From positions 2,903,964 to 2,967,963 of the forward strand of contig OZ245842.1 in NCBI GenBank assembly GCA_965228895.1: DNA of 64,000 nucleotides, written 5' to 3'. Source of the DNA: Alphaproteobacteria bacterium (GTDB lineage: Bacteria; Pseudomonadota; Alphaproteobacteria; SP197). Below the pieces are notes generated by a model. The model was not told where the DNA came from, did not search any database, and saw nothing but the letters and a program-made list of their open reading frames with translations. How positions within the stretch are numbered: position 1 is the first letter of the stretch; every line of letters begins with the position of its first letter. The translations under genes and the position numbers were made by a program. Below, one piece after another: positions 23,945-59,512 of the stretch.

Positions 23945-24035
23945 GATGGCTCCCGGCGGCGGCCAACGGTCATGTTGGCGGCGCCCATGGGAATAGCGGA
24001 CCGGCCCGGGTGTCAATCGGGAACGGCAGGTGCGG

Positions 24036-30111: not shown

Positions 30112-30144
30112 GGTCGAGTCGCCATCGAATTGGGGGAGGCAAAC

Positions 30145-42833: not shown

Positions 42834-42893
42834 AGCTCGATCACTATGGCGATTTGCGCCAAACTTGGGCGAGTTCGCTGACGGGAGGTGACC

Positions 42894-43403
42894 ATGACCG
42901 GCAAAGCTGACATCCGCGGCCTGCATCACAACGCCTACCGCTGCCGCGATGCCGAGGAGACACGGCAGTTCTATGAGGACTTCCTGGGTCTGGAACTGGC
43001 CGAGGCCTTCGAGATCGCGACGACGCAGACTGGCCGCGACACCCGTGTCATTCATATCTTCTTCGAAATGGGCGATGGGTCGTTCCTGGCCTTCTTCGAG
43101 GCGCCGGGCCAACCCTTCACGTTCAAGGACCAGCACGACTTCGACCTGCACATTGCTCTGGAGGTCAGCATGGAGACGCTGCACGCCATGTTCCAGAAGG
43201 GCAAGGACGCAGGCATCGAAACCCGCGGTATCTCCGACCATGGTTTCATTCACTCGATCTATTTCCGCGACCCCAATGGTTACGTCATCGAGCTGACCGC
43301 CAAGACCGAAACGCGCGATGCCGATGAATGGCAGCGCGTGAAAGGCGGCGCGCGGGCGGCGCTGGACAAGTGGACGGCGACAAAACCGGCGGACGCCGCC
43401 TGA
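42894..43403 (+). CDS. VOC/glyoxalase-family protein
   Basis: ATG 42894 follows GGGAGG at 42883-42888. VOC-like beta-alpha-beta-beta-beta modules. Confidence 0.7.
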   Translation: MTGKADIRGLHHNAYRCRDAEETRQFYEDFLGLELAEAFEIATTQTGRDTRVIHIFFEMGDGSFLAFFEAPGQPFTFKDQHDFDLHIALEVSMETLHAMFQKGKDAGIETRGISDHGFIHSIYFRDPNGYVIELTAKTETRDADEWQRVKGGARAALDKWTATKPADAA

Positions 43404-43435: not shown

Positions 43436-44572
43436 ATGACTGAGGCCGCACGCAAAGCGATAGACGGCAACGGGCCGTTCTTCACCTTGCCGCCCCGCTG
43501 GTTCACCGACCCGGCAGTCCTGGCGCGCGAAAAAGAAACGATCTTCTACAAGAGCTGGCGCTATGTCGGGCACGAGAGCGATTTACCCGAACCCGGCAGT
43601 TACATCACCTGTCGAATCGTCGATCAGTCGATCTTCCTGATCCGCAACCGGGATGGCGACATCAAGGCCTTTCACAACGTCTGCCGCCATCGCGCCCATG
43701 AGCTGCTGCAGGGGCACGGTAAGATAAAGGCCGTTATCACCTGCCCCTATCATGCCTGGGCCTATGACAGCGACGGCACCCTAAGGTCAGCGCGCCTGTC
43801 AGACGGCGTGCAGGGCTTCGACACGACGGATTTCAGCCTGGTGCCCGTCCGCGTCGAATCGATGCTGGGCCTGTTGTTCGTCAATCTCGATCCCGACGCC
43901 GTGCCCTTCGCCGAGCAGTTCGCAGGGCTGGCCGATGAGATCACGTCGCTGGTCCCGACATTTCCTGACCTGGTCAAGGTCGAACAGCAGCGCACCCGAA
44001 ACGGCGGCGATGACGTCGTCGACCTGAAGGCCAACTGGAAGGTGCTGATGGACAATTGCAGCGAGTGTTATCACTGCGATCCCGCCCATCCGGCCTTCGT
44101 CGACCTGGTCGACATGGCGAGCTACACGATCGACGTTCGCGACATGTACACACGCCACGAGATGGCGTGCACGAAACCCGCCAACGCAGCCTATGACTAC
44201 CGCACTGACACGACGGTGACGAAAGCCGTTTTCTGGCACCTGTGGCCGAACATGACGCTGGGCGTCATGCCGGGCTCACCGAACTTCGATGTCTTTCTGT
44301 TCGAGCCCGTCGAGGTCGAATCGACGCGCCTGGACGGCGACAGCTTCCGGCTGCCGGACGGCGCGGGCGAAACGGACGCCGCTCGGGCGCGCTATGGTTC
44401 GAATGTTCTGTGGCCCGAGGACCGCGACCTCTGCGAGTCCGTCCAGCGTGGGCTTCATTCACGCGGCTATCAGCGCGGCCGCTTCATGGTCGACGATCAG
44501 CGCAGCGCCATCTCCGAACACGTGCCCGCGTTCTTCCACCACAAGGTCGCCGAGGCGCTCGGCGAGGTCTAA
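43436..44572 (+). CDS. Rieske [2Fe-2S] non-heme iron oxygenase alpha subunit (GbcA/Stc2/CntA-like N-demethylase family)
   Basis: Rieske motif CRHRAHEL...CPYHAW. The C-terminal catalytic domain carries the His ligand context (NCSECYHCDPAHP). No reductase gene is adjacent. Confidence 0.85.
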   Translation: MTEAARKAIDGNGPFFTLPPRWFTDPAVLAREKETIFYKSWRYVGHESDLPEPGSYITCRIVDQSIFLIRNRDGDIKAFHNVCRHRAHELLQGHGKIKAVITCPYHAWAYDSDGTLRSARLSDGVQGFDTTDFSLVPVRVESMLGLLFVNLDPDAVPFAEQFAGLADEITSLVPTFPDLVKVEQQRTRNGGDDVVDLKANWKVLMDNCSECYHCDPAHPAFVDLVDMASYTIDVRDMYTRHEMACTKPANAAYDYRTDTTVTKAVFWHLWPNMTLGVMPGSPNFDVFLFEPVEVESTRLDGDSFRLPDGAGETDAARARYGSNVLWPEDRDLCESVQRGLHSRGYQRGRFMVDDQRSAISEHVPAFFHHKVAEALGEV

Positions 44573-44877: not shown

Positions 44878-45879
44878 TCAGCAGTCATCGGCTCCGCTGT
44901 TCAAACAACGCTCGATTTCCTCAACGATTTCGTTGACTTCCTCGTCGGAGAGTGAGTCTACCCAACTGCTGATGTGTACGTTCTTGTTGAACTCCAGAAG
45001 GTTCGAGGCTGCGTGCTCAATACTGACGTATAGCGCATCAACAACGGCGTCGTGGCTAGTCTGCTGAAAGAACACCACGCTATCATCAATCACGTACCTA
45101 ACGCTCGTACAGTTGCTCAGTTCCGCCACGCCAAAACTCGATTTTTGCAGTTGTGGTGACAGATCTTCCTTGAAGAACTTATCCAGTTCAACGAGGACGT
45201 ACGCCCTTGCTAACTCTGGGCAAACTTTCGCAGTCACATAGTGGTCGGCAGCATACTGGAAGATCACGAATACCGGGAAGAATCCGCCGTCACGATAGAC
45301 ATACATCACAGGGCCGTTCAGCACTTCTTCACAGTTCTCATCGCCATTACAGCCAAATCTCTCACTAAGCCTTTCAAAGACGTCACTCATCACGAGAATT
45401 CTCGAAACGTGACCGTCGTGATTCTGGCCCGCTGTCGCAGCCAACCACTCCCGGCGCAGGAACGCATAGAAATCGCCATACCCGTCAAATGTAATGTGAT
45501 TGAAACGATAACCATCGATGTAAGCGACCAAGTCGGTGTTCGCTTGCTGCTTCTGGCGAAAGAAGACGCGAACGTCAGCCGCCGTGTCACCAAATGCGCC
45601 CATCAGTGAGGACGTGATACCGGACCGATACTCTTCCGTCATCTCCGTGGTTCCTTCGACAGCGAAGTTGATACCGCCACGGTCGAACGACGCGGCTTCC
45701 GCCTCATCTTCTGCAGAGTTCGCGGCCTCAATAAACTCCACTGTTCCGGCCGCCAGGGAGAGCTGGGTGCCCGATCCAAAACCAAGTGAAACCACAAACA
45801 ATGCCAACAGAAACTGATTCGAAAGAGCCTTCGACACAGCAGCCTCTTGTTCTCTTGACCAATTCTCAATTGTTAGCAC
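44878..45879 (-). CDS. Hypothetical secreted/membrane-anchored protein in low-GC insertion
   Basis: 333 aa. N-terminal hydrophobic anchor FLLALFVVSLGFGSG. GC is about 50%, far below the window average. No recognised domain. Confidence 0.6.
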   Translation of the reverse strand: MLTIENWSREQEAAVSKALSNQFLLALFVVSLGFGSGTQLSLAAGTVEFIEAANSAEDEAEAASFDRGGINFAVEGTTEMTEEYRSGITSSLMGAFGDTAADVRVFFRQKQQANTDLVAYIDGYRFNHITFDGYGDFYAFLRREWLAATAGQNHDGHVSRILVMSDVFERLSERFGCNGDENCEEVLNGPVMYVYRDGGFFPVFVIFQYAADHYVTAKVCPELARAYVLVELDKFFKEDLSPQLQKSSFGVAELSNCTSVRYVIDDSVVFFQQTSHDAVVDALYVSIEHAASNLLEFNKNVHISSWVDSLSDEEVNEIVEEIERCLNSGADDC

Positions 45880-46043: not shown

Positions 46044-46505
46044 CTAGACGGGAGCCATGCCCTTCTCGGCCAGTTCCTTCTTCGCCTCGTCCGTCTTGTC
46101 GAGGCCTTCCAGCCCCATGCCTTTCAGCACGCCGGGCGCCTTGGTGTACTGGATGTTTTGGTAGGTCGTGATCTCAACCCGGTTGCCCCAGGGGTCCAGG
46201 AAGTCCAGGAAACGGCCCGGCATGATATCGACACCCATCGCCTTCAGGGTCTCGCGGACGAGTTCCTTGTCGTCAACCGCGATTCCAAAATGTCGTTTAT
46301 CATCAGCCTCTTGAGAGCGACCTTTGGCAAAGTTGATGAACTGGTCTCCGAAATAGATGAAGGCGGCGTTTTCGCTCTTGGACTTAAGCTCGAAGTTTAA
46401 GAAGCCCCCGTAGAAGTCGAGCGCTTGGTCGATATCGCCGACCTCCAACGCGATGTGATTGATACCGACCGCGTTGGCCTTCTTCGCACCGTTTCCTGTC
46501 GCCAT
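46044..46505 (-). CDS. VOC/glyoxalase-family protein
   Basis: Start ATG 46505. GINHIALEV... and a second VOC module. GC slightly below local average. Confidence 0.7.
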   Translation of the reverse strand: MATGNGAKKANAVGINHIALEVGDIDQALDFYGGFLNFELKSKSENAAFIYFGDQFINFAKGRSQEADDKRHFGIAVDDKELVRETLKAMGVDIMPGRFLDFLDPWGNRVEITTYQNIQYTKAPGVLKGMGLEGLDKTDEAKKELAEKGMAPV

Positions 46506-46557
46506 GGCGTCCTCCTTGCCTATGTTCATCTAACGATGGGAGCGCCGTCGAACCGGT

Positions 46558-47016
46558 TCAAGACCATGTCTTGCCGCCCGCGATCTTGGCCTTGGCCGCC
46601 TGGACGAAACGGCTGGCGTCCGACGGCTGCTGGGGCAGGTCGTCGGCGATTGTGTGCCAGGGCACCTTGCCCTCGATGCCCGTGTGATAGAGGTCCGGCG
46701 GCCAGTCTTCCGGCCGGTCGAAGCTGCCCAGGGTGACGGCCGGGACCTTGTCATCAACGAGCCAGAAATCGAGCGACGTACCGCAGGCTCCGCAGAACCC
46801 CCGCCTGGCCCACGCCGACGACTGGTAATAGCGCGGCTCACCCTGGGTGTAGCGGAAGGCGCCCAGGGGGAACGTAGCAAAGACGCCGAAGATGCCGCCA
46901 AGCGCCTTCTGGCACATCTTGCAGTGACAGTAGGCGACCCATTCCGTCGCGGCATCGGCTTGCCAACGTATGGCGCCGCACAGACAGCCGCCGGTCACCG
47001 GCAAGACGCCCGTCAT
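46558..47016 (-). CDS. GFA-family zinc protein (third paralog)
   Basis: Start ATG 47016 in an ATGA overlap with the GST stop. Motifs CLCGAIRW...CHCKMCQ...CGACG. Confidence 0.8.
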   Translation of the reverse strand: MTGVLPVTGGCLCGAIRWQADAATEWVAYCHCKMCQKALGGIFGVFATFPLGAFRYTQGEPRYYQSSAWARRGFCGACGTSLDFWLVDDKVPAVTLGSFDRPEDWPPDLYHTGIEGKVPWHTIADDLPQQPSDASRFVQAAKAKIAGGKTWS

Positions 47017-47630
47017 CAGCCAAAGACCTTTTTGACTGCCGGGCGCGCCGCGGCATTGGCGACGACGCGCTGGGCGTTGGGAAACTCGTCCATGGTCGGA
47101 TGGCCCATGTCCGGGCTGAGCCATGTCGCCAACATGCGCACGTGAATGTCGGCGGCGGTGAAGCGATTGCCGACCAGCCAGTCGTCGCCGCCGATCGCCT
47201 CGTCGATCATGCCCCAGATCTCACGCAGCCGGATGCACGACCGCGCCCGTGCACTCGCGATGTGCTCTTCGCTCTCGCAGAAACGAAGCGGGTAGTAGGT
47301 GAGCTGATAGGCCATCTGCAGGGTGTTCGACATATAGACCAACCACTGCAAGAACGGCCCGCGCAAGGGATCGTCCGCGGCCGGCGCCAGGCCCGCTTCC
47401 GCGTGACGGTCGGTGAGAAACACGGTGATCGCCGAGGCCTCATGCATGGCGCCGCCATCGTAGATCAGAACGGGGACCCAACCGTTGGGATTGAGTTCCA
47501 GAAGTTCCGGCGAACGCGGCTCATTGATGTCGATGCTGGAATCGAGAAGCTCGTACGGGGCGCCGATTTCCTCGAGCACCGCGCGCGTGCCCATGGCGGC
47601 CGAGTGATCGGCGTAAAACAACTTGTACAT
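47016..47630 (-). CDS. Glutathione S-transferase
   Basis: GST N-terminal thioredoxin-like (MYKLFYADHSAAMGTRAVLEE...) and C-terminal helical domains. GGAGA SD. Confidence 0.85.
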   Translation of the reverse strand: MYKLFYADHSAAMGTRAVLEEIGAPYELLDSSIDINEPRSPELLELNPNGWVPVLIYDGGAMHEASAITVFLTDRHAEAGLAPAADDPLRGPFLQWLVYMSNTLQMAYQLTYYPLRFCESEEHIASARARSCIRLREIWGMIDEAIGGDDWLVGNRFTAADIHVRMLATWLSPDMGHPTMDEFPNAQRVVANAAARPAVKKVFG

Positions 47631-47648
47631 GGCGTGTCTCCGGAATGG

Positions 47649-48758
47649 CTAGGCCGTATAGACGGCAACGGGTTCGCCGAGCTTATCGGGTTTGGGCTGA
47701 ATGCCCAGCCCCGGCGTCTCGGGCGCTGTCATGGTGCCGTCGACCCAGTCCGGTTTGCCGTCCGCCAGGGAGACGTCGTGAAGTTCGGTCGCGTCCCACA
47801 TGGAGTGGCATAGCGCCGCCGGCGTCGACTGGGCGAGATGCAGAATGGCGGCGGTGGCGATCTCGGAACCGCCGGTATCCTGCAGCGACATGGCAAGCCC
47901 TGCTTGGGCAGCAACATCGCGCATGAGCCGGGCCTTGGTCAGACCGCCGACCTTACCGATCTTGATGTTGATGGCCGCGCATACATTGTCGGCGATGGCG
48001 CGCAACAGTACCGTCAGGTCATCCAGGCTTTCATCCAGCATGATCGGCTGCGAAACCATGCGACTGACGGCAAGGCATTGTTCATAGGTCGCGCAAGGCT
48101 GCTCGAACAGCAGCGTCAGACCGCGCCGGCGCGCCGCTTCCATGACAGCGACAGCATCGCCTTGCAGCCAACCGCCGTTGCAGTCGCACAACGCATCGTC
48201 GCCCATGGCAACAATGTCGGCGACCACATCGAGGCGTGCGATATCCTCCGTCACGTCGCCACTGAACTTGACGGAGTGTTTGCCGTAGCCGCGTTGGCGC
48301 AGGGTCTTGAGATTGGCCAGCGTCTCCTCGGGGCCAGCGGCCGACACGCTGCTCACCAGGTCGACCGCGCCATCGGCGCGTCCGCCCATGAGGTCACAGA
48401 CCGGCATGCCCGCGTCCTTGCCCAGGATATCCCAGCACGCCATGTCGATGGCCGTCTTGCCATAGGGATGCCCCGGTAGCGCGCGATCCATAACGTCGTT
48501 GATCCGTTCCGTATGACGGGGGTCGCGGCCCAGGATCGTCGGCGCGAGCTCATCAATGACGGCGCGCGCACCCTTGGCGAAGGCCGGCAGGTAGCTGGAG
48601 CCAAACGGACATGTCTCGCCCCACCCGGTGATACCAGCATCCGTCTCCAGTGCAACAATCGTGGTGTCGAGCGACGTCCATGTGCGGCCGCCGGACAACC
48701 GGTACGGCTTCGTCATCGGCAGATCGACCTGATAGACGCGTATGGCGATTATGCGCAT
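47649..48758 (-). CDS. Enolase-superfamily enzyme, MLE subgroup-like (candidate betaine/N-substituted amino acid racemase or epimerase, HpbD-like)
   Basis: Capping plus barrel domains. Strand-2 lysines (KHSVKFSG) and strand-6 lysine (IKIGKVGG). Metal-ligand acids (D..E..D). Start ATG 48758 preferred over TTG 48767. Confidence 0.8.
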   Translation of the reverse strand: MRIIAIRVYQVDLPMTKPYRLSGGRTWTSLDTTIVALETDAGITGWGETCPFGSSYLPAFAKGARAVIDELAPTILGRDPRHTERINDVMDRALPGHPYGKTAIDMACWDILGKDAGMPVCDLMGGRADGAVDLVSSVSAAGPEETLANLKTLRQRGYGKHSVKFSGDVTEDIARLDVVADIVAMGDDALCDCNGGWLQGDAVAVMEAARRRGLTLLFEQPCATYEQCLAVSRMVSQPIMLDESLDDLTVLLRAIADNVCAAINIKIGKVGGLTKARLMRDVAAQAGLAMSLQDTGGSEIATAAILHLAQSTPAALCHSMWDATELHDVSLADGKPDWVDGTMTAPETPGLGIQPKPDKLGEPVAVYTA

Positions 48759-48776
48759 GCGATCCAACCGGGGCGC

Positions 48777-50051
48777 TCAGGAACCACGCGCCATCGCCAT
48801 AAGCGTCTCGACGTAGCGATCGGCGAAGGCCTCGGCGGCGGCGCGGTCACGCATCGGTTCGTCGTAACCGAACGAAAGACACGCGCCCGCGGCTGTCGAG
48901 ACAATCGCGACCATGACGGGATGCAGGCCGTGGTTCTGCGACGGCATGATCAAGATACGGGATATGCCGACCTGTCGTGCGGACAAGCGATCGAGGTCAC
49001 CGACATCCGAGACACAGATGCCGCTCGCGAACACCTCGCTCGACGCGGCGATCTGGTCGGCCTGTGCGACCGTAGTTTCGAGCGGCACACGGGTCTCCAT
49101 CAGAAGCGCCGGTGGGCGGTTGTCGCGAAGCCTTTCACCCATGGCGCGCGCGAGTTCGATCAGGCTGAGATCGGCGTGCTCGGGACCGGCGAAGATGTTG
49201 ATGGAGGCCACAAACTCGCCGACGGTGGTTCGCGAAATTGCCGGTTCGCAATCGGCGCGCACATCGGTCGGTTCGACAATTCCTGTCCACGGCGTGTGCC
49301 CCGGCAACGCGGGTCCCGCACGCACCGCAGCGGCGCAAAAGCCCGCGGCCAGATGGATGCCCTCACCGTGCAATCGATCGTGCAACGCCTGAAGATCCCC
49401 GCTCGGGAGAACCCTGAGTAGGGCGCGCGGCTGTCGGTCTTTTGCCGGGGCGCCCCTATCGACCGGCCAGATGGCATCGTCTGGCCATTCGGCGAAGATG
49501 CCGGCCTCGCCTTTCAGTCCGGCTGCCGCCAGCGCGCGTTCGGGCGCGTCGGTCAGCGTCAGCGAAGCTCGGTCGAGGGCATCGGGATCACGGGCCAGAA
49601 GATCGATCTCGTTGAACACAACCAGCGCGGAACGCCCGTCGATGGCCGCGTGATTGGTCACCAAGATCAGCCAAACCGCCTTTCCCGACGCATCCGTCAG
49701 CACCACCAGCCGCCATGACGTCACGGCGACATCGTCTAAAATGGCCGCTTCACGCGCATAGACCGCCTCCATGTCGAACGGCTCGCCTATGGCCTCCGTC
49801 CTGATCTCAATGGTCTCGAACGGCACATCGCACACCCACCACAGATTGTTGCGCGTCTCGATACGCCCGCGCATGAGCGGATGGCGGCCGTGGATGATCT
49901 TGAGAGCGCGACGGAGATTGGCAACGTCCATCGGCCGCTGCAACTCCGCCATGGCGACCAGTTGCACAGCGCCATTGCAACGCCTTTTCAGCTCGACAAG
50001 CAACGCCTCCTGCGGGCCTAGCTCTCGCTCGAAGACGTCCGTATTTCTCAT
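48777..50051 (-). CDS. Stand-alone condensation/acyltransferase-domain protein (HxxxDG motif; PapA5/NRPS C-domain-like)
   Basis: 424 aa with HAAIDGRS, matching the catalytic HHxxxDG consensus of CAT-like acyltransferases. No adenylation or carrier-protein genes nearby. Confidence 0.6.
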   Translation of the reverse strand: MRNTDVFERELGPQEALLVELKRRCNGAVQLVAMAELQRPMDVANLRRALKIIHGRHPLMRGRIETRNNLWWVCDVPFETIEIRTEAIGEPFDMEAVYAREAAILDDVAVTSWRLVVLTDASGKAVWLILVTNHAAIDGRSALVVFNEIDLLARDPDALDRASLTLTDAPERALAAAGLKGEAGIFAEWPDDAIWPVDRGAPAKDRQPRALLRVLPSGDLQALHDRLHGEGIHLAAGFCAAAVRAGPALPGHTPWTGIVEPTDVRADCEPAISRTTVGEFVASINIFAGPEHADLSLIELARAMGERLRDNRPPALLMETRVPLETTVAQADQIAASSEVFASGICVSDVGDLDRLSARQVGISRILIMPSQNHGLHPVMVAIVSTAAGACLSFGYDEPMRDRAAAEAFADRYVETLMAMARGS

Positions 50052-50088
50052 GTTGAACCCGTCATTTCGCTTGTCGGTATTCTGCCTG

Positions 50089-50856
50089 CTAAGTCTTGAG
50101 CTTTGTCATCGCCTTATCGAACTCGCGCCGGTTGATCGGGCAGGTGCTGACCAAGTGCCCGTCGCAGACGACGTGAAACACGCCATAGGCCGACGGCGCA
50201 CGGCGGCGCACGTCTTTGGCCGACGTTAGTTCGACCTCATTGAAGGCAACTCCATAGTCGTCTGCGGCCTCGCGCAACATGGTGACGGTGTCGTCGATAT
50301 AGGGACATTGGTCTGAGCGCATGACCGTCAGGCCCTTGCCCAGGGCGGCGCGCTTCTTCTCCCAATTGCCGGTGAACGTCGGCAGGTCAACGTCGCCCCA
50401 AGACTTCACCATCAACGAGAACGTGGGCGGCGCTTCTTCGACGCAGGTGAAGCCGTGTTTTTCGAGGAAGCGCCGGCCGATCAGCCAGTTGCCTTCGCTC
50501 GTCACCATCGCAATGCCGGGGAAACCCGCGCGCTTCGCCTCGTTGACGGCGAGGTCCATAAGGTGGCCACTCAGGCCACTGCCCTTACTGCGCCCGACGA
50601 CCCACAGACAGTGGATGACAAGATAGTCCGCCGCCTCGATCGACCGCCACGCATAGGCGCCAGGGATCGTCTCGACAAACCCGCGGCCGCCATCCCGGAT
50701 CATGTGGATCTTCAGGCCTTCGGCGAAACGTTTGTCGAGCCACGCGCGTTTTCGTTTGTAGCCGTCAGCCTTGCGTCGGCTCATCAAACAGAAAAACCCA
50801 GTCTCGTCCACGTTGTCCGGACCGACCTCAACAATGTTGAACGCGCCGGCAGCCAT
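50089..50856 (-). CDS. GNAT N-acetyltransferase with C-terminal YoaP-like domain
   Basis: Start ATG 50856, 5 nt after the upstream gene stop. GNAT core, then a C-terminal CPYIDD...VFHVVCDG segment resembling the YoaP-like domain. Confidence 0.65.
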   Translation of the reverse strand: MAAGAFNIVEVGPDNVDETGFFCLMSRRKADGYKRKRAWLDKRFAEGLKIHMIRDGGRGFVETIPGAYAWRSIEAADYLVIHCLWVVGRSKGSGLSGHLMDLAVNEAKRAGFPGIAMVTSEGNWLIGRRFLEKHGFTCVEEAPPTFSLMVKSWGDVDLPTFTGNWEKKRAALGKGLTVMRSDQCPYIDDTVTMLREAADDYGVAFNEVELTSAKDVRRRAPSAYGVFHVVCDGHLVSTCPINRREFDKAMTKLKT

Positions 50857-50861
50857 CGCGG

Positions 50862-52901
50862 CTAAAGATCCTTGACCAACCGCAGGGCATCGTAGACCGC
50901 CGCATGAATGTTGCGACTGGCAACGCAATCGCCGATGCGAAAGAGCTGGAAGCGTCCGTCCGGGTTGGTGCGTAGGGCCTGCGGCTCGCCCGCGATCAAC
51001 GCGTCATAGTCGGTCTGGCCACGATTGACCGAAAGCTCCTTGAGTTCGCCATAGAGCCCGTCATTGGCGAGCGTGCCGTAATCGGAGACGACCTGATCGA
51101 CGACACGCTCTTCCTCCTCGTGGCTGTAGTCGTTGTGCAGGAGACAGACCAGATGACCGTTCTCGCGGTAGATCTGTTTGAGATGGTGGTCAGGCGTCAA
51201 CAGGACGTCCGACTTATAGAGGTTCTGCATGTGGGTCGGCAGGTTGGTGGCGCCAACCTCCTCGCCGATCATGCGCCCATTGGTCACGACTTCGACCAGC
51301 GCGCCGCGCTCGGCCAGGAACTCCGCACAGGACGGGCCCTGCTGCATGCCACTCTCGTCGTAGAGCAACACGTTCTTCGCAGGCTCGACCGCGCCGGTCA
51401 GAATGTCCCAGACACTGGCGGCCAGGTCGGCGCCATCGTAATAGCCGGTGTTGGGCCGCCCGCCGGTCGCCAGGATCACCACGTCCGGGTTCTCATTCAC
51501 AATGGCGTCACGGGTCGCTTCGGTGCCGTAGCGTTGGTCAATGCCCAGTTTCGTCACCTGCCCATCGAACCAGCGCACGATGCCCGATAGATTTTCGCGC
51601 CACGGTGCCTTGGCCGCGATGTTGATCTGACCGCCGGGTTGTTCAGCCATCTCGAACAGGATGACATCGTGACCGCGTTCGGCGGCGACGCGGGCCGCCT
51701 CCAGGCCACCTGGGCCTGCCCCGACCACGACCACCTTGCGCGCCGATGACGCCTTGTCGATGACATGGGGCATGGTCTGTTCGCGGCCGGTCGCGGCGTT
51801 GTACGCGCACAATGCCTCGCCGCCCATCGAGACCCGGTCGACACAATAGGTCGCGCCGACACACTGACGGATATCGTCGACGCGCCCTTCCACCAGTTTG
51901 TTGACGATATGCGGATCGGCGATGTGGGCTCGGGTCATGGCAACCATGTCGATATGCCCCTCGGCGATGGCGCGATCGGCCGTCGGCAGATCGCGGATTG
52001 CCGAGGCATGCAGAACAGGGATGTCGACCTGGGCCTTCACCGCGCTTGCCAGATGGAGAAACGGCGCCGGCGGAAAGCTCATGTTCGGCATCAGCATAGC
52101 GAGCCCCGACCAGTCGGTGCCGTGACTTTGATAGACAGACAAGAAGTCGATCAGGCCGGACTGGGCGAAACGTGTCGCGATTGTCATGCAGTCGGACTGA
52201 TCGAGGCCGCCTTCCAGAAGTTCGTCGCCGGACAGGCGCATGCCGACGATAAAGTCGTCGCCGACGGCCTCGCGGATCGCCTCGAACACCTCCAGGCCAA
52301 AGCGCATGCGGTTATCCAGGCTGCCACCGTAGCCGTCGGTCCGTTGGTTGACGCTGGGCGACAGAAAGGCATCGATCAGATGTTGCGCGGCGGCGATCAC
52401 CTCGACGCCATCGAGGCCGCCTTCCCGGCAACGCTGGGCCGCGCGCGCGTAGCACGCGATGATGCGGCGGATGTCCCAATCTTCGGCTTCCTTCGGAAAG
52501 CTGCGGTGCAGCGGCTCACGCACCGGCGACGGCGCCACCAGCGGCATCCAGTTGCCGCCGTCCCAACGCCCCCGCCGGCCTATATGGGTGATCTGGCACA
52601 TGGTCGCCGCACCATGGCTGTGCACCCGCTCGGCGAGCGCCTTCAGGTGCGGGATGACATCGTCGTGGGCCACCGATAGCTGGCGGAACGGCAGCGGCGA
52701 ATCCGGCGCGACCGACGACGAGCCGCCGAACATGGTAAGCGCAATGCCGCCCCTCGCTTTTTCCTCGTGATAGAGCTGGTAGCGCTCGCCCGGCATGCCA
52801 TCCTCGGCATAGGCCGGCGCGTGCGCCGTCGACATGATGCGGTTCCTGAGCGTCAGCCCCTTGATGGTCAGGGGTTTCAAAAGCGCGTCGTACTGGGCCA
52901 T
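50862..52901 (-). CDS. OYE-like FMN oxidoreductase fused to FAD/NAD(P)-binding domain, second DgcA-like paralog
   Basis: 679 aa, colinear with 27872-29914 and identical over long stretches (MAQ.DALLKPLTIK..., RIGDCVA.RNIHAA.YDA.RL). There is no adjacent dgcB/etf, so its electron-transfer partner is unknown. Confidence 0.85.
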   Translation of the reverse strand: MAQYDALLKPLTIKGLTLRNRIMSTAHAPAYAEDGMPGERYQLYHEEKARGGIALTMFGGSSSVAPDSPLPFRQLSVAHDDVIPHLKALAERVHSHGAATMCQITHIGRRGRWDGGNWMPLVAPSPVREPLHRSFPKEAEDWDIRRIIACYARAAQRCREGGLDGVEVIAAAQHLIDAFLSPSVNQRTDGYGGSLDNRMRFGLEVFEAIREAVGDDFIVGMRLSGDELLEGGLDQSDCMTIATRFAQSGLIDFLSVYQSHGTDWSGLAMLMPNMSFPPAPFLHLASAVKAQVDIPVLHASAIRDLPTADRAIAEGHIDMVAMTRAHIADPHIVNKLVEGRVDDIRQCVGATYCVDRVSMGGEALCAYNAATGREQTMPHVIDKASSARKVVVVGAGPGGLEAARVAAERGHDVILFEMAEQPGGQINIAAKAPWRENLSGIVRWFDGQVTKLGIDQRYGTEATRDAIVNENPDVVILATGGRPNTGYYDGADLAASVWDILTGAVEPAKNVLLYDESGMQQGPSCAEFLAERGALVEVVTNGRMIGEEVGATNLPTHMQNLYKSDVLLTPDHHLKQIYRENGHLVCLLHNDYSHEEEERVVDQVVSDYGTLANDGLYGELKELSVNRGQTDYDALIAGEPQALRTNPDGRFQLFRIGDCVASRNIHAAVYDALRLVKDL

Positions 52902-52903
52902 CG

Positions 52904-53431
52904 TCAGCGAGCCCTCTGTCCGACGGCTGCGGCCAAGGTGGTCATCGCATCGGCCTCAAGGCGATAGTGACGGTGTCCCAAGTCGATCATCCCGATTGCC
53001 TCGTAAAACTCTATCGCCGGAAGTCCTTCCTCGACAAACAGCTCGATACGAATCCAATCGCGCTCGACGGCAAGTCTCGCCACCTCTGCCATCAACTGCC
53101 GCGCGATGCCATGCTGGCGGTATTCTGGTCCGACATAGAGCGCATGAACAATGCCCATCGGCCGCCCCCTCCATCCGGCATAGCCGCGAAAGAACGAGAC
53201 AAAGCCGATAACCGTTCGATCGACCTCGGCCGCGAGAGCCTCAAAGAGAGGGTCGACACCGAATCCCGCGCGAGAAATTGCATCGACCGTAAGTTGTGCA
53301 TGGAAGCCGGGCCGATGGCTCTCGATCAGACAACACGTCAGGCGATGGAGCGCCTCGGCATCTTCGACACATGCCGGCCGCACGGAAGCCCGAACCAACG
53401 CGCGCTCCTGCGATCCGTGCACGGTCGGCAT
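52904..53431 (-). CDS. GNAT-family N-acetyltransferase
   Basis: Start ATG 53431. Acetyl-CoA-binding motif ...RQHGIARQLMAEVARLA.... Confidence 0.7.
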   Translation of the reverse strand: MPTVHGSQERALVRASVRPACVEDAEALHRLTCCLIESHRPGFHAQLTVDAISRAGFGVDPLFEALAAEVDRTVIGFVSFFRGYAGWRGRPMGIVHALYVGPEYRQHGIARQLMAEVARLAVERDWIRIELFVEEGLPAIEFYEAIGMIDLGHRHYRLEADAMTTLAAAVGQRAR

Positions 53432-53444
53432 CCGCCTCGCCAGC

Positions 53445-54746
53445 CTAACGCGCGACGCGGTCGCGGTATTGGTAATAGCGCTGCACGATCGGCAGGAACC
53501 AGGGATTGCCGTCATAGAGCGGGATGGTCGGAAAGGCCAACCCCTCGAACGCGCACTCGGCTTCCGGCGTTCCCAGGATGCGCTGTGCGGTCTTGTAGCC
53601 GAGATAGGTCTGCTTCACGACGCCCGACCCATTGCAGGCGAGCGCAAAGTGCAGGCCATCCTTGACGCCGGTATGCGGCAGCTTGTCGAAGGCGAACGCG
53701 ACGTTGCCTGTCCAGCTATGGGTGACCTTGATGTCTTTCAGTTCCGGGAACACGCCGGTCATGAAGTCGTGCAGGATTTTGCCGCTCTCGTGTGTCTCGA
53801 CATCGCGCGTCTTGGCGCGGCCGCCGAAGATGACGCGCTTCCGGTCGGGCGACGGCCGGTAGTAGTAGAGGATCTTCTTGGTGTCGGCGATCATCCGGTG
53901 ATTGGGGAACAACCGGTTCATGGTCTCGACCGGCAGTTCCTCGGTCGCGATGATGTAGCTGCCGACCGGGACCAGGCGGCGGCGGAAATTCTGCGCCGCG
54001 CGCGGCGTGTAGCCGTTGGTCATGACGGCGACCTCTTTGGCTCTGACCGTGCCGCGCGATGTCGTCACCTGGAATCCGTCGCCGTCCCGGCTGATGCGCT
54101 CGACCGGCGTGTGGGCCGCCAGCTTGACCCCGGCCGCCATCACGCGATCGAGGAACTCCTGATGGTAGACGGCCGGATGCAGACCGCCGCCCGACAACGT
54201 CACCTTGCCGCCGTGATAGATATCGGTCGCGACCTCGTTCGCCACATCGCCCTTGGCGATCATGTGGCCGGTATCGAGGCCGACTTCCTTTTTCACCAGG
54301 TCGGCGTCGCGCGCCATGGCTTCATAGTGGCTGGGGGCGTGGGCGCCGACGAAACGGCCGACCTTCTGATAGTGGCACTGCATCTGTTCGGACGCGATGA
54401 ACTCGTCGAAAAACACCATGGCGTTGTTGGCTTCGCGCACCAGGGCGGCGGCCTTGGTCTGGCCGTACTTGGCCTTCAGCTCGCTGTAGCCCAGCTTGAG
54501 CCCGCCACCAGCCATGCCGCCGCTGCGCGAGCTGGCACCGTAGCCGGGTTCGCTGGCTTCCAGGATCAGGACGTCACGCCCGGCGCGGGCCAGGTAGAGC
54601 GCGGCCGCCATGCCGGCATAGCCGGAGCCGACCACGGCCACGTCGACGGTTTCGGGCAAGGCGATCGGAACGAACTCAGGCCGGGGCGCCTCCTCCCACC
54701 AATAGGGCGTTGCCTTCCAGTCGTCGGCAAACGGGGCCTCGGCCAT
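53445..54746 (-). CDS. FAD-dependent oxidoreductase of the DAO family (D-amino acid/glycine/gamma-glutamylputrescine oxidase-like)
   Basis: Start ATG 54746. Dinucleotide fold VAVVGSGYAGMAAALYLARAG. First gene of the nine-gene minus-strand cluster. Confidence 0.85.
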   Translation of the reverse strand: MAEAPFADDWKATPYWWEEAPRPEFVPIALPETVDVAVVGSGYAGMAAALYLARAGRDVLILEASEPGYGASSRSGGMAGGGLKLGYSELKAKYGQTKAAALVREANNAMVFFDEFIASEQMQCHYQKVGRFVGAHAPSHYEAMARDADLVKKEVGLDTGHMIAKGDVANEVATDIYHGGKVTLSGGGLHPAVYHQEFLDRVMAAGVKLAAHTPVERISRDGDGFQVTTSRGTVRAKEVAVMTNGYTPRAAQNFRRRLVPVGSYIIATEELPVETMNRLFPNHRMIADTKKILYYYRPSPDRKRVIFGGRAKTRDVETHESGKILHDFMTGVFPELKDIKVTHSWTGNVAFAFDKLPHTGVKDGLHFALACNGSGVVKQTYLGYKTAQRILGTPEAECAFEGLAFPTIPLYDGNPWFLPIVQRYYQYRDRVAR

Positions 54747-54916
54747 GGGTGTCCTCCTGTGTTTCACCGCAACCTAGCGGATTCACGCCGCCACCGACAA
54801 GACGGGCGAACCCGACCAAAGGCGACCTTGGTCTCGTTGTCGGCGACGGAAACTGGCCGTTTTGCCGTGCAACCGCGTGTCATAAGCAGCCCGGCAGGCC
54901 CGAGGAGGCAGTAACG

Positions 54917-56488
54917 ATGAACGAAGAGGCACCGAGCGGACGGCGCGGCAGGCGCCATCGCGGCGAACACGGCGGCAGCGGCGCGCGGCGCGCCCAGCGC
55001 AGCCACAAGTATTCGACCGACGCCCTGCCCTATATCCAGCGCAACATCCCGCTGACGGAGGTGCTGACCGAAGAGGCGCTGGAGATCATCGAAAACAATG
55101 CCGAAACGGTCATGGAAGAGGTCGGCATCGCCATCCACGACGACCAGGAGGTCGTCGACCTGTGGAAGGAGGCCGGCGCCGATGTCGGCAAGGACGGCCA
55201 AACGCTCCACGTGCCCCGCGGCCTGGCGCGCAAGCTGATTTCGACCGCGCCCAACCACTTCATCCAGCATGCCCGCAACCCCGACCGCAAGGTCAAGATC
55301 GGCGACGGCGCGACCGTCTTCGCGCCGGTCTACGGCCCGCCCTTCATCCGCAATCTGGACGATGGCCGGCGCTACGCGACAATCGAGGATTTCCGCAACT
55401 TCGTGAAGCTGGCCTATATGACGCCGGCCATGCACCATTCCGGCGGCACAGTGTGCGAGCCGGTCGATATCCCGGTCAACAAGCGTCACCTGGATATGGT
55501 CTATTCCCATATCCGCTATTCCGACAAACCGTTCATGGGTTCGGTGACGGCGCCGGAGCGCGCCGAAGACACGGTGGCGATGGCGAAGCTGGTGTTCGGC
55601 GATCAGTTCGTCGAAGACAATTGCTGCATCATCAACCTGATCAACGCCAACTCGCCGATGACCTTCGACGGCACCATGCTGGGCGCGTTGAAGGTCTATG
55701 CCCGTCACAACCAGGCCTGCGTCGTCTCGCCGTTCATTCTGGCCGGCGCCATGAGCCCGGTGACCGTCGCCGGCACGCTGGCCCAGTTGCTGGCCGAAGC
55801 CATGGTCGGCATGGCGACGACCCAGTTGGTCCGGCCTGGCGCACCGGTGGTGTTCGGCACCTTCGGCAGCTCGATCTCCATGCAGTCGGGCGCGCCGACC
55901 TTCGGCACGCCGGAACCGACCCAGGTGCTGCTGGGCAGCGCGCAACTGGCGCGCCGTCTGGGCGTGCCGTTCCGTTCCGGCGGATCGTTGTGCGGCTCCA
56001 AGATCGCCGACGCGCAGGCGGCCTATGAAAGCGCCAACACGCTGCTGCCGACGATGCTGGGCGGCGTCAACTTTGTGCTGCACGCGGCCGGCTGGCTCGA
56101 AGGCGGTTTGGCGTCCGGATACGAGAAGTTCGTCATGGACGCCGATCAGCTCGGCATGATGCAGGTGCTGGCCCGTGGCGTCGACATCTCGGAGAACGGC
56201 CAGGCGATGGATGCCATCCGCGAGGTCGGCCCGGGTAGTCACTTCCTGGGCTGCGCCCACACCCAGGCCAACTTCGAGACCGCGTTCTACCGCTCGACCA
56301 TCGCCGACAACAACAGCTTCGAGCAGTGGGAAGCCGAAGGCAGCCAGGATGCCATGCAGCGCGCCAACAAGCTGTGGAAGGAGATGCTGGCATCCTACGA
56401 GGCGCCTGCCATCGACCAGAGCGTCGACGAGGCGCTCAACGCCTTCATCGCCGAAAAAAAGGCTGCGGTGCCCGATTCCTTCACTTGA
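54917..56488 (+). CDS. MttB-superfamily methyltransferase (non-pyrrolysine; glycine betaine/proline betaine/carnitine:corrinoid methyltransferase-like)
   Basis: ATG 54917 preceded by GAGGAGG. 523 aa TIM-barrel MttB-family pattern with no in-frame amber codon. No corrinoid-protein or MtgA-like genes in the window. Confidence 0.85.
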   Translation: MNEEAPSGRRGRRHRGEHGGSGARRAQRSHKYSTDALPYIQRNIPLTEVLTEEALEIIENNAETVMEEVGIAIHDDQEVVDLWKEAGADVGKDGQTLHVPRGLARKLISTAPNHFIQHARNPDRKVKIGDGATVFAPVYGPPFIRNLDDGRRYATIEDFRNFVKLAYMTPAMHHSGGTVCEPVDIPVNKRHLDMVYSHIRYSDKPFMGSVTAPERAEDTVAMAKLVFGDQFVEDNCCIINLINANSPMTFDGTMLGALKVYARHNQACVVSPFILAGAMSPVTVAGTLAQLLAEAMVGMATTQLVRPGAPVVFGTFGSSISMQSGAPTFGTPEPTQVLLGSAQLARRLGVPFRSGGSLCGSKIADAQAAYESANTLLPTMLGGVNFVLHAAGWLEGGLASGYEKFVMDADQLGMMQVLARGVDISENGQAMDAIREVGPGSHFLGCAHTQANFETAFYRSTIADNNSFEQWEAEGSQDAMQRANKLWKEMLASYEAPAIDQSVDEALNAFIAEKKAAVPDSFT

Positions 56489-56712: not shown

Positions 56713-57972
56713 ATGCATATCGACATTGTCGACGATTACGAGAGTTTTCTTGCGCTGAAGGATGACTGGGAGTCCGTCTATGCGGATGATCCCGAAGCAC
56801 ATTTTTTCCTGTCGTGGACATGGATGACCAAGTGGCTGGATTCGGCGATTTCCGAGTGGGAGATTGTGGTTGCCCGTGACGACGAAAACGGTGGGCGGTG
56901 CGTCGCCGTTCTTCCACTGCGGATCAGGGCCTTTCCGGCAAAGAACGGCACGCTCTATACCGAAATCTGGATGGCGGCCCAAGGCGTCGCCGACTATGTC
57001 GGTTTCTTGTGCCGCCCGGGTGCGGAAGAAAGCGCCCTTCCGGCCATGGCCGACTATATCAAGACGCTCAAGTGGAACGGCTTGAACCTGCGTTGTTTCG
57101 ATGCGTCGGAAACGCGCGCCAAATTATGGACGGACGCGTTTCCGCGCTCTGACTTCAAGCTGAAGCGCGTGACGTCGACCGACAACGAAGAAGGCTACGA
57201 CAATTCCGTTTGCCCCTACGTGACATTGCCGGATGACTGGGACACCTATCTCGACACCCAGGTCAGCACCAACACGCGCCAGAAGATCCGGCGTTTCCTG
57301 AGAAAAGTCGAGAACAGCGACGAGTACAGCATCACCGTGACGAGTCCTGAGACGTTGGAGCGGGACTATGCGGTGCTGAACAAGCTGTGGGAAGACAAGT
57401 GGGGTCAGTCAAAGGGCGAAATGGTAACGCAGATCTTCTACAGGATCCGCCGGACCATGCTGACCCACTGCCTGGAGCACGACGCGCTGTTCATGCCGAT
57501 TCTCTGGCACAACGACAAACCGGTCGGCGCCCTGGGCTCGATCGTCGATCCGGTCAAGAAGTCGATGCTGTTTTTGATCGCAGGCCGTGACGTGAAAGCC
57601 AAGGGTCCGCCAAGCGGCCTGGTCTTGCATGCCTACAGCATACGCCATGCCATCCAGCGCGGCCTCAAGACTTATGATTTCCTTCGCGGCAACGAGCCCT
57701 ACAAGTACTCCTTCGGCTCCCAGGAACGGCGGATCAAGTATCTGATGGTCGAACGCAAGATCGCCAGCAAACAGCTGGACCCGCGTTGCGTAGGTTCTGC
57801 CATAGAGATGACGAAGCGAATGCAGGCATCCGGCAGGCTGACCGAGGCCGAACGCGGTTATCGCCAAATTCTCAAGATCCAGCCCGAGAATGAAACCGCC
57901 CAACAACATCTCGATCAAGTCGTGGCGGCGAAAAGCCGTTCCAAGGCCGCCAACAAGAGATTGAACGCTTAA
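56713..57972 (+). CDS. CelD/BioF2-like (FemAB-type GNAT fold) acyltransferase-family protein
   Basis: C-terminal YDFLRGNEPYKYSFG motif typical of CelD-like/Acetyltransf_6 proteins. TPR-like tail. GC lower than flanks. Confidence 0.65.
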   Translation: MHIDIVDDYESFLALKDDWESVYADDPEAHFFLSWTWMTKWLDSAISEWEIVVARDDENGGRCVAVLPLRIRAFPAKNGTLYTEIWMAAQGVADYVGFLCRPGAEESALPAMADYIKTLKWNGLNLRCFDASETRAKLWTDAFPRSDFKLKRVTSTDNEEGYDNSVCPYVTLPDDWDTYLDTQVSTNTRQKIRRFLRKVENSDEYSITVTSPETLERDYAVLNKLWEDKWGQSKGEMVTQIFYRIRRTMLTHCLEHDALFMPILWHNDKPVGALGSIVDPVKKSMLFLIAGRDVKAKGPPSGLVLHAYSIRHAIQRGLKTYDFLRGNEPYKYSFGSQERRIKYLMVERKIASKQLDPRCVGSAIEMTKRMQASGRLTEAERGYRQILKIQPENETAQQHLDQVVAAKSRSKAANKRLNA

Positions 57973-57986
57973 GGCGTCTGCAGAGA

Positions 57987-58553
57987 TTGACAAAAACTCT
58001 CCGTCAATCCGCAAGATTTGTAAGCGGTCCGATGGCGATTGCCGTGCTGCTGATGACAGCATGCGCGTTACCATCACACGAGAGCAACGCGTCTGAAGAC
58101 AAGATCGCCGACTTGATCGAGGCGCGGCTGGCGCTCATGAAAGACGTTGCGGCTTACAAGTTCCTCAACGACATTGCAATCGAGGACAAGGAACGCGAGG
58201 CGGTGGTTCTAAGCCGTGCCGTCGATCAGGCAGAGGCGGCCGGTTTGGATGGTGCGTCCGTCGCGCCCTTTTTCACCGCCCAGATCGATGCCGCAAAGGT
58301 CATTCAGCAATGCTGGTTCGTACGCTGGCGGCAGGACGAAGCGGACATTCCCGAGGGTACGCCCGACCTGCAGAACGACATTAGGCCCCGTTTGATCGAC
58401 ATCGGCAACGACCTCGTGACCGCGATCGCCGACTTGGCGGCCGAAGGTGCCCATCTCGACCGCGTGTCGGCGCCGCGTCTCGAATGCCTACCGAATGACA
58501 AGGCCGAGGCGATCACGACGAGCCTGTCCGGAGTTTTCGCAGCGACGGACTAA
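57987..58553 (+). CDS. Secreted (lipoprotein) chorismate mutase, AroQ class
   Basis: Lipobox LMTAC. CM-2-like helices (IEARLALMKDVAAYKF...IEDKEREAVVL...). The true start may be ATG 58032. Confidence 0.6.
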   Translation: MTKTLRQSARFVSGPMAIAVLLMTACALPSHESNASEDKIADLIEARLALMKDVAAYKFLNDIAIEDKEREAVVLSRAVDQAEAAGLDGASVAPFFTAQIDAAKVIQQCWFVRWRQDEADIPEGTPDLQNDIRPRLIDIGNDLVTAIADLAAEGAHLDRVSAPRLECLPNDKAEAITTSLSGVFAATD

Positions 58554-59373: not shown

Positions 59374-59512
59374 GGCATGAAACTCCCTCCTGGTCCCTGC
59401 GACAAAGTTTCGCCTGCTTCGGTCAGGGATTCACGCAGATTTGCCGAAGCCATCTACCCAAGTGCGAGCCGGGCGATTATGCTCCTCCGAAATGATAACA
59501 GGAGGGATCGCC

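Follow-up and report, generated by a model that had tools for sequence, protein, structure and literature searches.

A string of nine minus-strand genes occupies positions 46044-54746 of a 64,000-nucleotide stretch of contig OZ245842.1 (forward-strand positions 2,903,964 to 2,967,963; hereafter 'the window') from an uncultured alphaproteobacterium (GCA_965228895.1). On balance, we lean towards reading it as a lineage-restricted, insertion-prone gene string around the stepwise N-demethylation of a betaine-type osmolyte, and not as one conserved nine-step pathway. The locus appears, from its sequence, to be a lineage-restricted variant of known betaine catabolic clusters, set within what is predicted to be a methylated-amine catabolic island. 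Its stable core consists of a flanking MttB-family methyltransferase gene and, within the string, the genes for a DAO-family oxidoreductase, a DgcA-family demethylase, a stand-alone condensation-fold protein, a glutathione S-transferase (GST) and a VOC protein, usually accompanied by those for an MLE-subgroup enolase-superfamily enzyme and a GFA-domain protein. The original prediction was of a single candidate pathway, mixing betaine-type demethylation, epimerisation and oxidation with three acyltransferases and an N-acylated intermediate: the betaine-type component is supported at the level of protein families (by the MttB, DgcA and Rieske proteins and the genomic contexts of MLE homologs), the single nine-gene pathway is not, and we find no support for a new route via acylated intermediates.

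A combination of open reading frame (ORF) calling and Pfam/NCBIfam scanning confirmed nine minus-strand ORFs, with the limits, short gaps and domains that had been claimed for them; from first to last in the string, they are:

53445-54746, minus strand: DAO-family flavin adenine dinucleotide (FAD) oxidoreductase, 433 aa, first in the string (Pfam DAO, 2.5e-53)
52904-53431, minus strand: small GNAT acetyltransferase, 175 aa (Acetyltransf_1, 1.8e-14)
50862-52901, minus strand: DgcA-family two-domain flavoenzyme, OYE/flavin mononucleotide plus FAD/nicotinamide dinucleotide, 679 aa (Oxidored_FMN, 5.5e-58, and Pyr_redox_2)
50089-50856, minus strand: GNAT protein with a YoaP-like C-terminal domain, 255 aa (family-level GNAT and PF14268 matches)
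48777-50051, minus strand: stand-alone condensation-fold protein with the motif NHAAIDG, 424 aa (sub-threshold PapA_C match and predicted fold)
47649-48758, minus strand: MLE-subgroup enolase-superfamily enzyme, 369 aa (MR_MLE_N and MR_MLE_C)
47016-47630, minus strand: GST, 204 aa (GST_N and GST_C)
46558-47016, minus strand: GFA-domain (PF04828) zinc protein, 152 aa (GFA, 2.6e-20)
46044-46505, minus strand: VOC/glyoxalase-fold protein, 153 aa, last in the string (Glyoxalase, 7e-10)

The gaps between them, in the same order, measure 13, 2, 5, 37, 18, 18, -1 and 52 nt. G+C content of the window is ~63% and all nine ORFs display the high third-position G+C typical of local coding sequence; strong Shine-Dalgarno sequences precede both the DAO (AGGAGG) and the VOC gene. 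The GFA frame corresponds to the ORF at 46558..47124 read from Met37, its start overlapping the stop of the GST gene by 1 nt; an alternative ORF at this position (46530..46955) has no family match. The nine ORFs are real and, as judged by spacing alone, probably co-transcribed; no promoter-like or terminator-like site within the string rises above shuffled controls.

The nine-gene string is, however, not a fixed unit. We compared six related loci, the window and five relatives that are all metagenome-assembled genomes (L001, L002, L027, L061 and L026); gene content differs among all six, and gene order is thus not conserved. L001, a sister strain with 97-99.5% DNA identity, carries the same string, save that the C-terminal half of the YoaP-type gene has been deleted (322 bp; window 50148-50469) and that an insertion with orf333, described below, is absent. 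The small GNAT gene is missing from L002. In L027, which also lacks this gene, the DAO-OYE-YoaP block is followed by a truncated, GcvA-like LysR gene of opposite orientation and a dehydrogenase gene; after these come the condensation-fold and enolase-superfamily genes, a gene for a 198-aa protein, and finally GST-GFA-VOC. L061 has neither the small GNAT nor the GFA gene, retains a 33-aa remnant of the MLE gene, and carries an opposite-strand RTX-like gene before the VOC gene; L026 lacks the YoaP-type and GFA genes and has acquired two transposase genes. It is because L061 is without the enolase-superfamily gene, and L027 is split by an opposite-strand regulator remnant, that we do not regard the string as fixed. 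What persists wherever the contigs reach are the DAO, OYE, condensation-fold, GST and VOC genes and, in the flanks, those for MttB, a Rieske oxygenase, a second VOC protein (VOC2) and an XDH-type protein: the DAO gene is present in 5/5 clade loci covering its position, the VOC gene in 5/5 reaching its position and the GST gene in 6/6. The differences fall on the small GNAT (missing in 3/5), the YoaP-type gene (truncated or missing in 2/6), the MLE gene (missing in 1/6) and the GFA gene, which is absent in L026 and L061.

Two further features of these loci may be recorded here. At the junction of the L001 deletion the alignment overlap suggests a 23-nt repeat, and DNA identity between the window and L001 stands at ~97% to the left of the deletion and 99.5% to its right, suggestive of a recombination boundary. 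The 198-aa protein, for which there is no family match, is encoded just upstream of the GST gene in both L027 (11260-11856) and L061 (11518-12114), with 75% mutual identity, and is absent from the window.

The case for N-demethylation starts with the genes that flank the string on either side, together with the region that separates the DAO gene from its divergent neighbour:

54917-56488, plus strand: non-pyrrolysine MttB-family methyltransferase, 523 aa (PF06253, 2.1e-231, 768.7 bits)
54747-54916, no strand: divergent DAO/mttB intergenic region, 170 nt, presumed shared control region
43436-44572, plus strand: GbcA-like alpha subunit of a Rieske non-haem iron oxygenase, gene convergent on the string (Rieske and Ring_hydroxyl_A)

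The mttB ORF is uninterrupted, has no in-frame amber codon and diverges from the DAO gene. Among solved structures its product matches 4yyc best (7e-250), followed by the glycine betaine methyltransferases 2qne and 9yce (~1e-120), with the true trimethylamine methyltransferase MttB far behind (1e-37). It is 96-100% conserved in L001, L002, L027 and L061, and 73% identical to orthologs from Paracoccus methylovorus and Sinorhizobium meliloti, the genes for which adjoin those for B12-binding, DUF1638, MetF, methyltetrahydrofolate:cobalamin methyltransferase and ASKHA proteins (mtgC/mtgD/ramA-type). The protein is thus a probable betaine:corrinoid methyltransferase of the MtgB type. Glycine betaine has been shown to be demethylated by an aerobic MtgBCD system in Ruegeria (Mausz et al. 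2025, PMC12478193), where the cognate corrinoid protein, methyltetrahydrofolate methyltransferase and reductive activator act in trans (PMC12478193); a scan of ORFs in the 64-kb window turned up no gene for any of these three proteins. The Rieske protein has GbcA as its best curated model, at 159 bits against a cut-off of 670, and its gene directly abuts the VOC gene in L001, L027, L026 and L061. In the intergenic region we found no consensus sigma-70 site and no Rfam element. Within mttB itself, Rfam PYLIS_3 matches positions 55988-56087 with 38.1 bits against a gathering score of 38.0; this most likely reflects homology of the coding sequence and not a functional PYLIS element.

The second presumptive demethylase is the OYE protein of the string, which has the two-domain architecture of DgcA and is 64% identical, over 676 aa, to Azospirillum DgcA WP_012977303, encoded in a gbcAB / dgcAB / etfAB / proVW cluster and adjoining genes for DUF3483 (DgcB) and ETF; it is also 52% identical to a Ralstonia protein annotated as an N-methylproline demethylase. 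Its architecture, and its closeness to a DgcA encoded amid dgcAB-etfAB genes, make it a probable oxidative N-methyl-amino-acid demethylase. An initial suspicion, that it might be an odd paralog missing a cysteine of the Fe-S cluster, was dropped, the pattern CVGAxYCxDR...ALC being common to this protein, the Azospirillum DgcA and a second paralog of the window. The absence of DgcB and ETF genes beside the OYE gene had been pointed out originally and holds locally, neither dgcB (DUF3483/CCG/Fe-S) nor etfAB occurring inside the nine-gene string; a canonical set, encoding a DgcA paralog to which the OYE protein is 58% identical, is found 21 kb away in the window:

24036-29914, minus strand: canonical dgcA-dgcB-etfA string, possibly with etfB, 21 kb from the OYE gene
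27872-29914, minus strand: dgcA (Oxidored_FMN and Pyr_redox_2)
25963-27879, minus strand: dgcB (DUF3483, CCG and Fer4)
24812-26059, minus strand: etfA (ETF and ETF_alpha)
24036-24815, minus strand: candidate etfB, 259 aa, no Pfam match, named from size and position
22691-24067, minus strand: M24 peptidase gene, same string
20184-22820, minus strand: DMGDH-like gene, same string

Altogether, two DMGDH/sarcosine dehydrogenase-like genes lie in the window to the left of the nine-gene string. It is possible that the DgcB and ETF proteins of the 24.0-29.9 kb string serve the OYE paralog in trans as electron-transfer partners.

Set against the Pseudomonas-type GbcAB/DgcAB-EtfAB system and MtgBCD (PMC12478193), the locus shares the OYE protein (64% to DgcA), the MttB protein (73% to orthologs in mtg clusters) and a Rieske protein for which GbcA is the best model; it differs in that DgcB and ETF are encoded 21 kb off with the other DgcA paralog, in having no corrinoid protein gene among the window ORFs scanned, in the score of its Rieske protein (159 against the GbcA cut-off of 670), and in a DAO enzyme that is not a SoxB-type sarcosine oxidase. 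Indeed, the best curated models for the DAO enzyme all fall far below their cut-offs: 141/600 bits for the L-pipecolate oxidase AmaA, and 116/633 for an aminophosphonate oxidoreductase; its match to the sarcosine oxidase beta model is weak (38/529). Amongst solved structures it has no relative beyond the dinucleotide-binding motif, and its best plasmid homolog is 45% identical. Where the best homologs of the DAO and MLE enzymes occur on plasmids (L032 and L033), their surroundings share with the string only family-level neighbours: MLE (24%), Rieske (32%) and GST (32%).

The MLE enzyme had been described as HpbD-like; by sequence it is nearer to the cis-3-hydroxy-L-proline dehydratase group. 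Its best matches in the PDB are 3eez (5e-100) and 4mgg (5e-97), the latter presumably the cis-3-hydroxy-L-proline dehydratase of Labrenzia aggregata, as compared with 4e-54 for HpbD itself (4e8g; range for HpbD-type structures 4e-54 to 1e-49); a true HpbD ortholog, encoded on metagenome contig L050, scores 1e-144 against 4e8g, and the similarity of the window enzyme to HpbD falls short of that level. Identity is 44-50% to the cis-3-hydroxy-L-proline dehydratase group versus 31-35% to HpbD, and the best curated family match is the dehydratase equivalog NF043002, at 407.8 bits under a cut-off of 500. Saying this, both lysines (K164 and K266) and the three metal ligands (D192, E219 and D242) are invariant across an alignment that includes 4e8g and 2pmq, and W321 aligns with the Trp of the EG[AV]W motif in HpbD, the residue that binds the quaternary nitrogen, where the dehydratases carry Thr. 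The clade differs from the dehydratases also in having Gln for Glu at position 293 and Gly for Trp at position 296; the former corresponds to Asp293 of HpbD, which in that enzyme makes up the betaine-binding pair with the Trp, so that one residue of the pair is present here and the other is replaced. We found only five sequences with at least 72% identity, after which values drop to 53% or less, and a metagenome scan for further members returned none above 53%. Within the HpbD / cis-3-hydroxyproline dehydratase cluster the enzyme thus falls into a small clade of its own, like the dehydratases in overall identity and catalytic residues, and unlike them in its score and at the three substituted positions. 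The catalytic, metal-ligand and betaine-binding roles of the HpbD residues are those published for that enzyme (PMC3950512).

A family-level test of co-occurrence, made on metagenome contigs, found homologs of the MLE enzyme (34-53% identity) adjoining OYE-like, Rieske or MttB genes on six unrelated contigs (L041, L043, L044, L048, L050 and L052). On L050 (contig Ga0065715_10090304, 3538-6167) we also observe an MttB-family gene, its product 42% identical to that of the window, 38 nt upstream of the HpbD ortholog; the pair could encode a cobalamin-dependent proline or hydroxyproline betaine demethylase and a betaine racemase. In the published pathway for hydroxyproline and proline betaines, known from Paracoccus denitrificans and Rhodobacter sphaeroides, HpbD acts as racemase/epimerase, HpbB/C as a Rieske demethylase and HpbA as a flavin-dependent N-methylproline demethylase (Kumar et al. 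2014, PMC3950512). The window resembles this arrangement in that its MLE enzyme comes from the same sequence cluster, with both lysines, the three metal ligands and the Trp for the quaternary nitrogen, in that genes for a Rieske oxygenase and a flavin N-demethylase lie close to it, and in that formaldehyde handling is to be expected. It departs from it in the low identity of the enzyme to HpbD and its Gln at the Asp293 position, in lacking an HpbC-type reductase, a LysR-type HpbR regulator and an ABC transporter in the string, in having an MttB-family gene, in the dispensability of the MLE gene in one relative (L061), and in the interleaving of condensation-fold, GST, GFA, VOC and two GNAT genes.

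Capture of formaldehyde by the GST and GFA proteins had been proposed, and in the published pathway proline betaine does induce formaldehyde detoxification; here, the idea fares weakly, the Pfam GFA domain being present and the curated S-(hydroxymethyl)glutathione synthase model not. For the string's own GFA protein there is no match in NCBIfam, and it is not the curated Gfa enzyme. A second GFA gene (30130-30630), divergent from the dgcA string and with a product 30% identical to that of the first, scores 22/234 bits against the curated model (TIGR02820 / PRK05417), such that both DgcA paralogs of the window have a GFA-domain gene nearby. The GST reaches 58/198 bits against the GstA model and the VOC protein gives weak FosA-type matches (40/280 bits).

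The condensation-fold protein is one of the three presumed acyltransferases behind the original suggestion of an acylated intermediate. Its score against Pfam PapA_C is 26.9 bits, below the threshold of 30, and its motif reads N-H-A-A-I-D-G, the first His of HHxxxDG being replaced; H134 and D138 are strictly conserved across 30 homologs, with Asn or Ser in place of the first His. The AlphaFold2 model (pLDDT 94.7) nonetheless has a C-domain fold, with 8s6l (AzeD) as best Foldseek match (E 7e-25, TM 0.75, 21% identity) and as the only match in the PDB for a profile of the family (1.2e-17). It shares its fold with nonribosomal peptide synthetase (NRPS) condensation or PapA5-type acyltransferase proteins, the [N/S]HxxxDG motif and the sub-threshold PapA_C score setting it apart from these, and no carrier protein, adenylation or CoA ligase gene was found among the window ORFs scanned. 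It fits better with C_standalone, as a discrete protein with the first motif His replaced and AzeD as nearest solved relative. AzeD is a dehydratase acting on a free small molecule, and is the founding member of a clade of C-family proteins that are likewise discrete and carry another residue where the motif has its first His (bioRxiv 10.64898/2026.07.17.738954); the hydroxyl on which it acts is free and sits on the ring of a bicycle derived from proline or azetidine (bioRxiv 10.64898/2026.07.17.738954). Because the sole solved relative is a dehydratase, acyl transfer is not the default reading for the window protein, which need not be an acyltransferase. Like AzeD, it is a discrete protein (~420-460 aa) of C-domain fold; unlike AzeD, to which its identity is just 21%, it has Asn or Ser, not Pro, before the catalytic His, and its gene lies in a catabolic island here and solo elsewhere, with no NRPS or polyketide synthase genes nearby.

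The family is rare. A word-indexed search of 5.8e9 proteins yielded 51 homologs, and an exhaustive search of 1.84e9 proteins returned 32 representatives at E<=1e-30, with discrete proteins of ~400-460 aa making up most of its top-scoring distant relatives; an exact-sequence search gave no match for the condensation-fold protein, and the sister-strain contig L001 for the OYE protein. In 17 species-representative genomes outside the clade, homologs (27-57% identity) have no other gene of the string beside them, four annotated contexts proved mutually unrelated, and all-against-all clustering of ORFs within 7 kb at 18 loci identified no conserved neighbours, except in three related Hoeflea/Rhizobiaceae genomes. 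A VOC homolog (62%) lying 9.6 kb off on the other strand in L007, and a weak DAO-family match (29%) in L003, were both judged to be chance. Within the clade, by contrast with these solo homologs, the condensation-fold and MLE genes sit adjacent, 9-21 nt apart, in five of the six genomes. It is conceivable, though we consider it decidedly improbable, that the protein is a dehydratase or other non-acyltransferase working with the MLE clade on a free N-methylated or hydroxylated imino acid. If true, this would be the first instance of primary osmolyte catabolism taking over a C-family protein from natural-product chemistry, and the partnership between the condensation-fold and MLE proteins would define a new branch of betaine degradation.

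As for the two GNATs, both appear to be variable passenger genes. The small GNAT, a generic protein of atypical composition (third-position G+C of 0.66, versus 0.75-0.87 in its neighbours), is found only in the window and L001 (99%), with just 13-17 nt separating the DAO and OYE genes in L002, L027 and L061; we take it to be a species-specific insertion between these two genes. The label of GNAT-YoaP given to the larger protein is sustained for its family and less so for the protein itself, which has a weak GNAT match (E 1.3e-3) and no YoaP match: it is ~50% identical over its full length to family members, 22/22 of which, among those aligned, match GNAT and 7/22 PF14268 (YoaP). The family counts >1000 homologs at ~50% identity across phyla, with invariant GFFC and R-x-DQCPY motifs, and in the two contexts examined (L024 and L025) the homologs are solo genes in housekeeping surroundings; we found no literature on YoaP. 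A separate observation concerns a fourth acyltransferase-like gene, absent from the original list: a plus-strand Acetyltransf_6 (FemAB-like GNAT) gene that, together with a chorismate mutase type II gene, lies downstream of mttB at 56713-58553, the pair being conserved in L001, L002 and L061, with the start of Acetyltransf_6 seen at the contig end of L027.

Moving beyond the VOC end of the string, and further along the contig, the remaining neighbours are:

about 44503/44578-46045, no strand: 1.47-kb strain-specific insertion between the VOC and Rieske genes, with orf333 (44878-45879, minus strand)
40494-43403 region, convergent on the VOC gene: lone gene for the large subunit of an XDH/CODH-type molybdopterin enzyme (glyceraldehyde dehydrogenase alpha model, 599/790 bits)

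The insertion is absent from the four relatives that reach the site (L001, L027, L026 and L061) and is flanked by a 75-nt direct repeat of 87% identity, a copy of the 3' end of the Rieske gene; orf333 (333 aa, third-position G+C of 0.60) has no Pfam or NCBIfam match. The XDH/CODH-type gene has no adjacent gene for an FAD or 2Fe-2S subunit and is followed by the VOC2 gene and then the Rieske gene, a trio that is conserved across the clade. We considered homarine or picolinate catabolism for these XDH-like, Rieske and VOC genes, and set it aside having found no supporting literature. Elsewhere, nitrile hydratase alpha and beta genes stand beside an APH-family kinase gene at 59441-60819, seemingly unrelated to the string.

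Putting homology and genomic context together, we propose that MttB would take a first methyl group from a betaine-type osmolyte, with a corrinoid protein whose gene lies elsewhere as acceptor, and that the DgcA paralog would remove the next methyl group oxidatively, passing electrons to the DgcB and ETF proteins encoded 21 kb away. The MLE enzyme could then epimerise or dehydrate the resulting amino or imino acid and the DAO-family enzyme could oxidise it, while the glutathione-linked GST, GFA and VOC proteins could take care of formaldehyde or other electrophiles. The substrate may be glycine betaine, favoured because of the context of the MttB orthologs, or a proline-type betaine, favoured because the MLE enzyme carries the Trp and because the OYE gene would otherwise duplicate the canonical dgcAB-etf set.

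Several observations sit uncomfortably with this proposal. The MttB orthologs' context points to glycine betaine, the breakdown of which needs no epimerase, and therefore the MLE enzyme and the demethylases may serve different substrates. The DAO enzyme has no characterised close relative by comparison with curated models and structures, the GST and VOC proteins are generic, and both GFA proteins match the broad Pfam domain and miss the curated Gfa model; nor is there a transporter or intact regulator in or beside the string in the window. The condensation-fold gene, to which the proposal assigns no step, has its place within the string in every one of the six clade genomes. The GNAT genes, being 2-13 nt from same-strand neighbours, probably share in the expression of the string here and may yet have a role in this strain, and some of the absences on which we rely could be artefacts, given that the relatives are metagenome assemblies and that L026 looks rich in frameshifts.

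Three other explanations have to be weighed against N-demethylation with passengers. One of them confines function to the left end of the string, where MttB would convert glycine betaine to dimethylglycine, the DgcA paralog dimethylglycine to sarcosine and the DAO enzyme sarcosine to glycine, all downstream genes being unrelated neighbours on the same strand. The mtgC/mtgD clusters around the 73% MttB orthologs and the identity of the OYE protein to DgcA speak for this, as do the opposite-strand gene that parts DAO-OYE-YoaP from the remainder in L027 and the wealth of glycine betaine genes in the window (dgcAB-etf and two DMGDH-like genes); that same wealth would, however, make the left end redundant, the DAO enzyme is weak against the sarcosine oxidase beta model, MLE enzymes of the cluster recur beside N-demethylases at family level, and the condensation-fold, GST and VOC genes persist with DAO and OYE across the clade. 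We consider this explanation unlikely. A second scheme would make the core one pathway for a hydroxylated cyclic imino-acid betaine (hydroxyproline or hydroxypipecolate betaine), with demethylation by MttB and/or the Rieske oxygenase and then by the DgcA paralog, epimerisation by the MLE enzyme, dehydration of the free ring hydroxyl by the AzeD-like protein and oxidation of the imino acid by the DAO enzyme. It would account for the HpbD-type Trp, which the cis-3-hydroxy-L-proline dehydratase lacks, for the action of AzeD on a ring-borne hydroxyl, for the adjacency of the condensation-fold and MLE genes in 5/6 clade genomes and for the best, though weak, curated match of the DAO enzyme being an L-pipecolate oxidase; moreover, with a canonical dgcAB-etf set already in the window, a second DgcA paralog may take another substrate. 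Saying this, L061 has the condensation-fold gene with no MLE gene, condensation-fold homologs of similar identity (48-59%) are solo in unrelated contexts, identity to AzeD is low, Asp293 of HpbD is Gln here, and the MttB orthologs again point to glycine betaine, such that we regard the scheme as distinctly unlikely.

The third explanation, a single nine-gene pathway in which the GNATs or the condensation-type enzyme N-acylate the substrate or an intermediate and the enolase-superfamily enzyme racemises the acyl form prior to demethylation and oxidation, was likened to the N-succinyl-amino-acid racemase route, which pairs an NSAR/OSBS-family racemase with a GNAT succinyltransferase and a desuccinylase. 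It draws on nine co-directional genes with gaps of 52 nt or less, on acyltransferase-type folds in three of them, on an enolase-superfamily gene near GNAT genes, and on a condensation-fold gene that is in the string in 6/6 clade genomes and next to the MLE gene wherever that gene is present (five genomes). Against it, the MLE enzyme scores 79/200 bits against OSBS/NSAR (menC) models and has relatives whose substrates are free or quaternary imino acids; no amidohydrolase or deacylase was found in the string or its flanks, and no amidohydrolase/deacylase, carrier protein, CoA ligase or adenylation gene among the window ORFs scanned; and the nearest characterised relative of the condensation-fold protein is a dehydratase. 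Nor are the GNATs conserved partners, the small one being absent in L002, L027 and L061 and the YoaP-type one truncated in L001 and missing from L026; in L061, moreover, the condensation-fold gene is present without the enolase-superfamily gene. In every other genome examined, the genes of the two larger acyltransferase-like families stand alone, and their co-occurrence with the epimerase/demethylase pair, proposed originally as a test, was found nowhere outside one small clade, as far as sampled (17 condensation-fold and 2 YoaP contexts). Because the acyltransferase homologs sampled outside the clade occur without epimerase or demethylase genes beside them, and because no deacylase, carrier protein or NSAR-type racemase was found, we hold this explanation to be very improbable indeed.

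Two cautions of a more general kind follow from the locus: genes packed closely on one strand of a single genome can be passengers that have accumulated there, and acyl transfer is not to be read from a C-domain fold alone. It also flags two small groups of uncharacterised enzymes, namely the MLE clade that stands between HpbD and cis-3-hydroxyproline dehydratase, and the rare family of stand-alone condensation-fold proteins. If stepwise N-demethylation by the core is the right reading, the locus would add a variant to the routes by which marine and soil alphaproteobacteria consume methylated osmolytes, one that combines a cobalamin-dependent first step of the MttB type with an oxidative step of the DgcA type.

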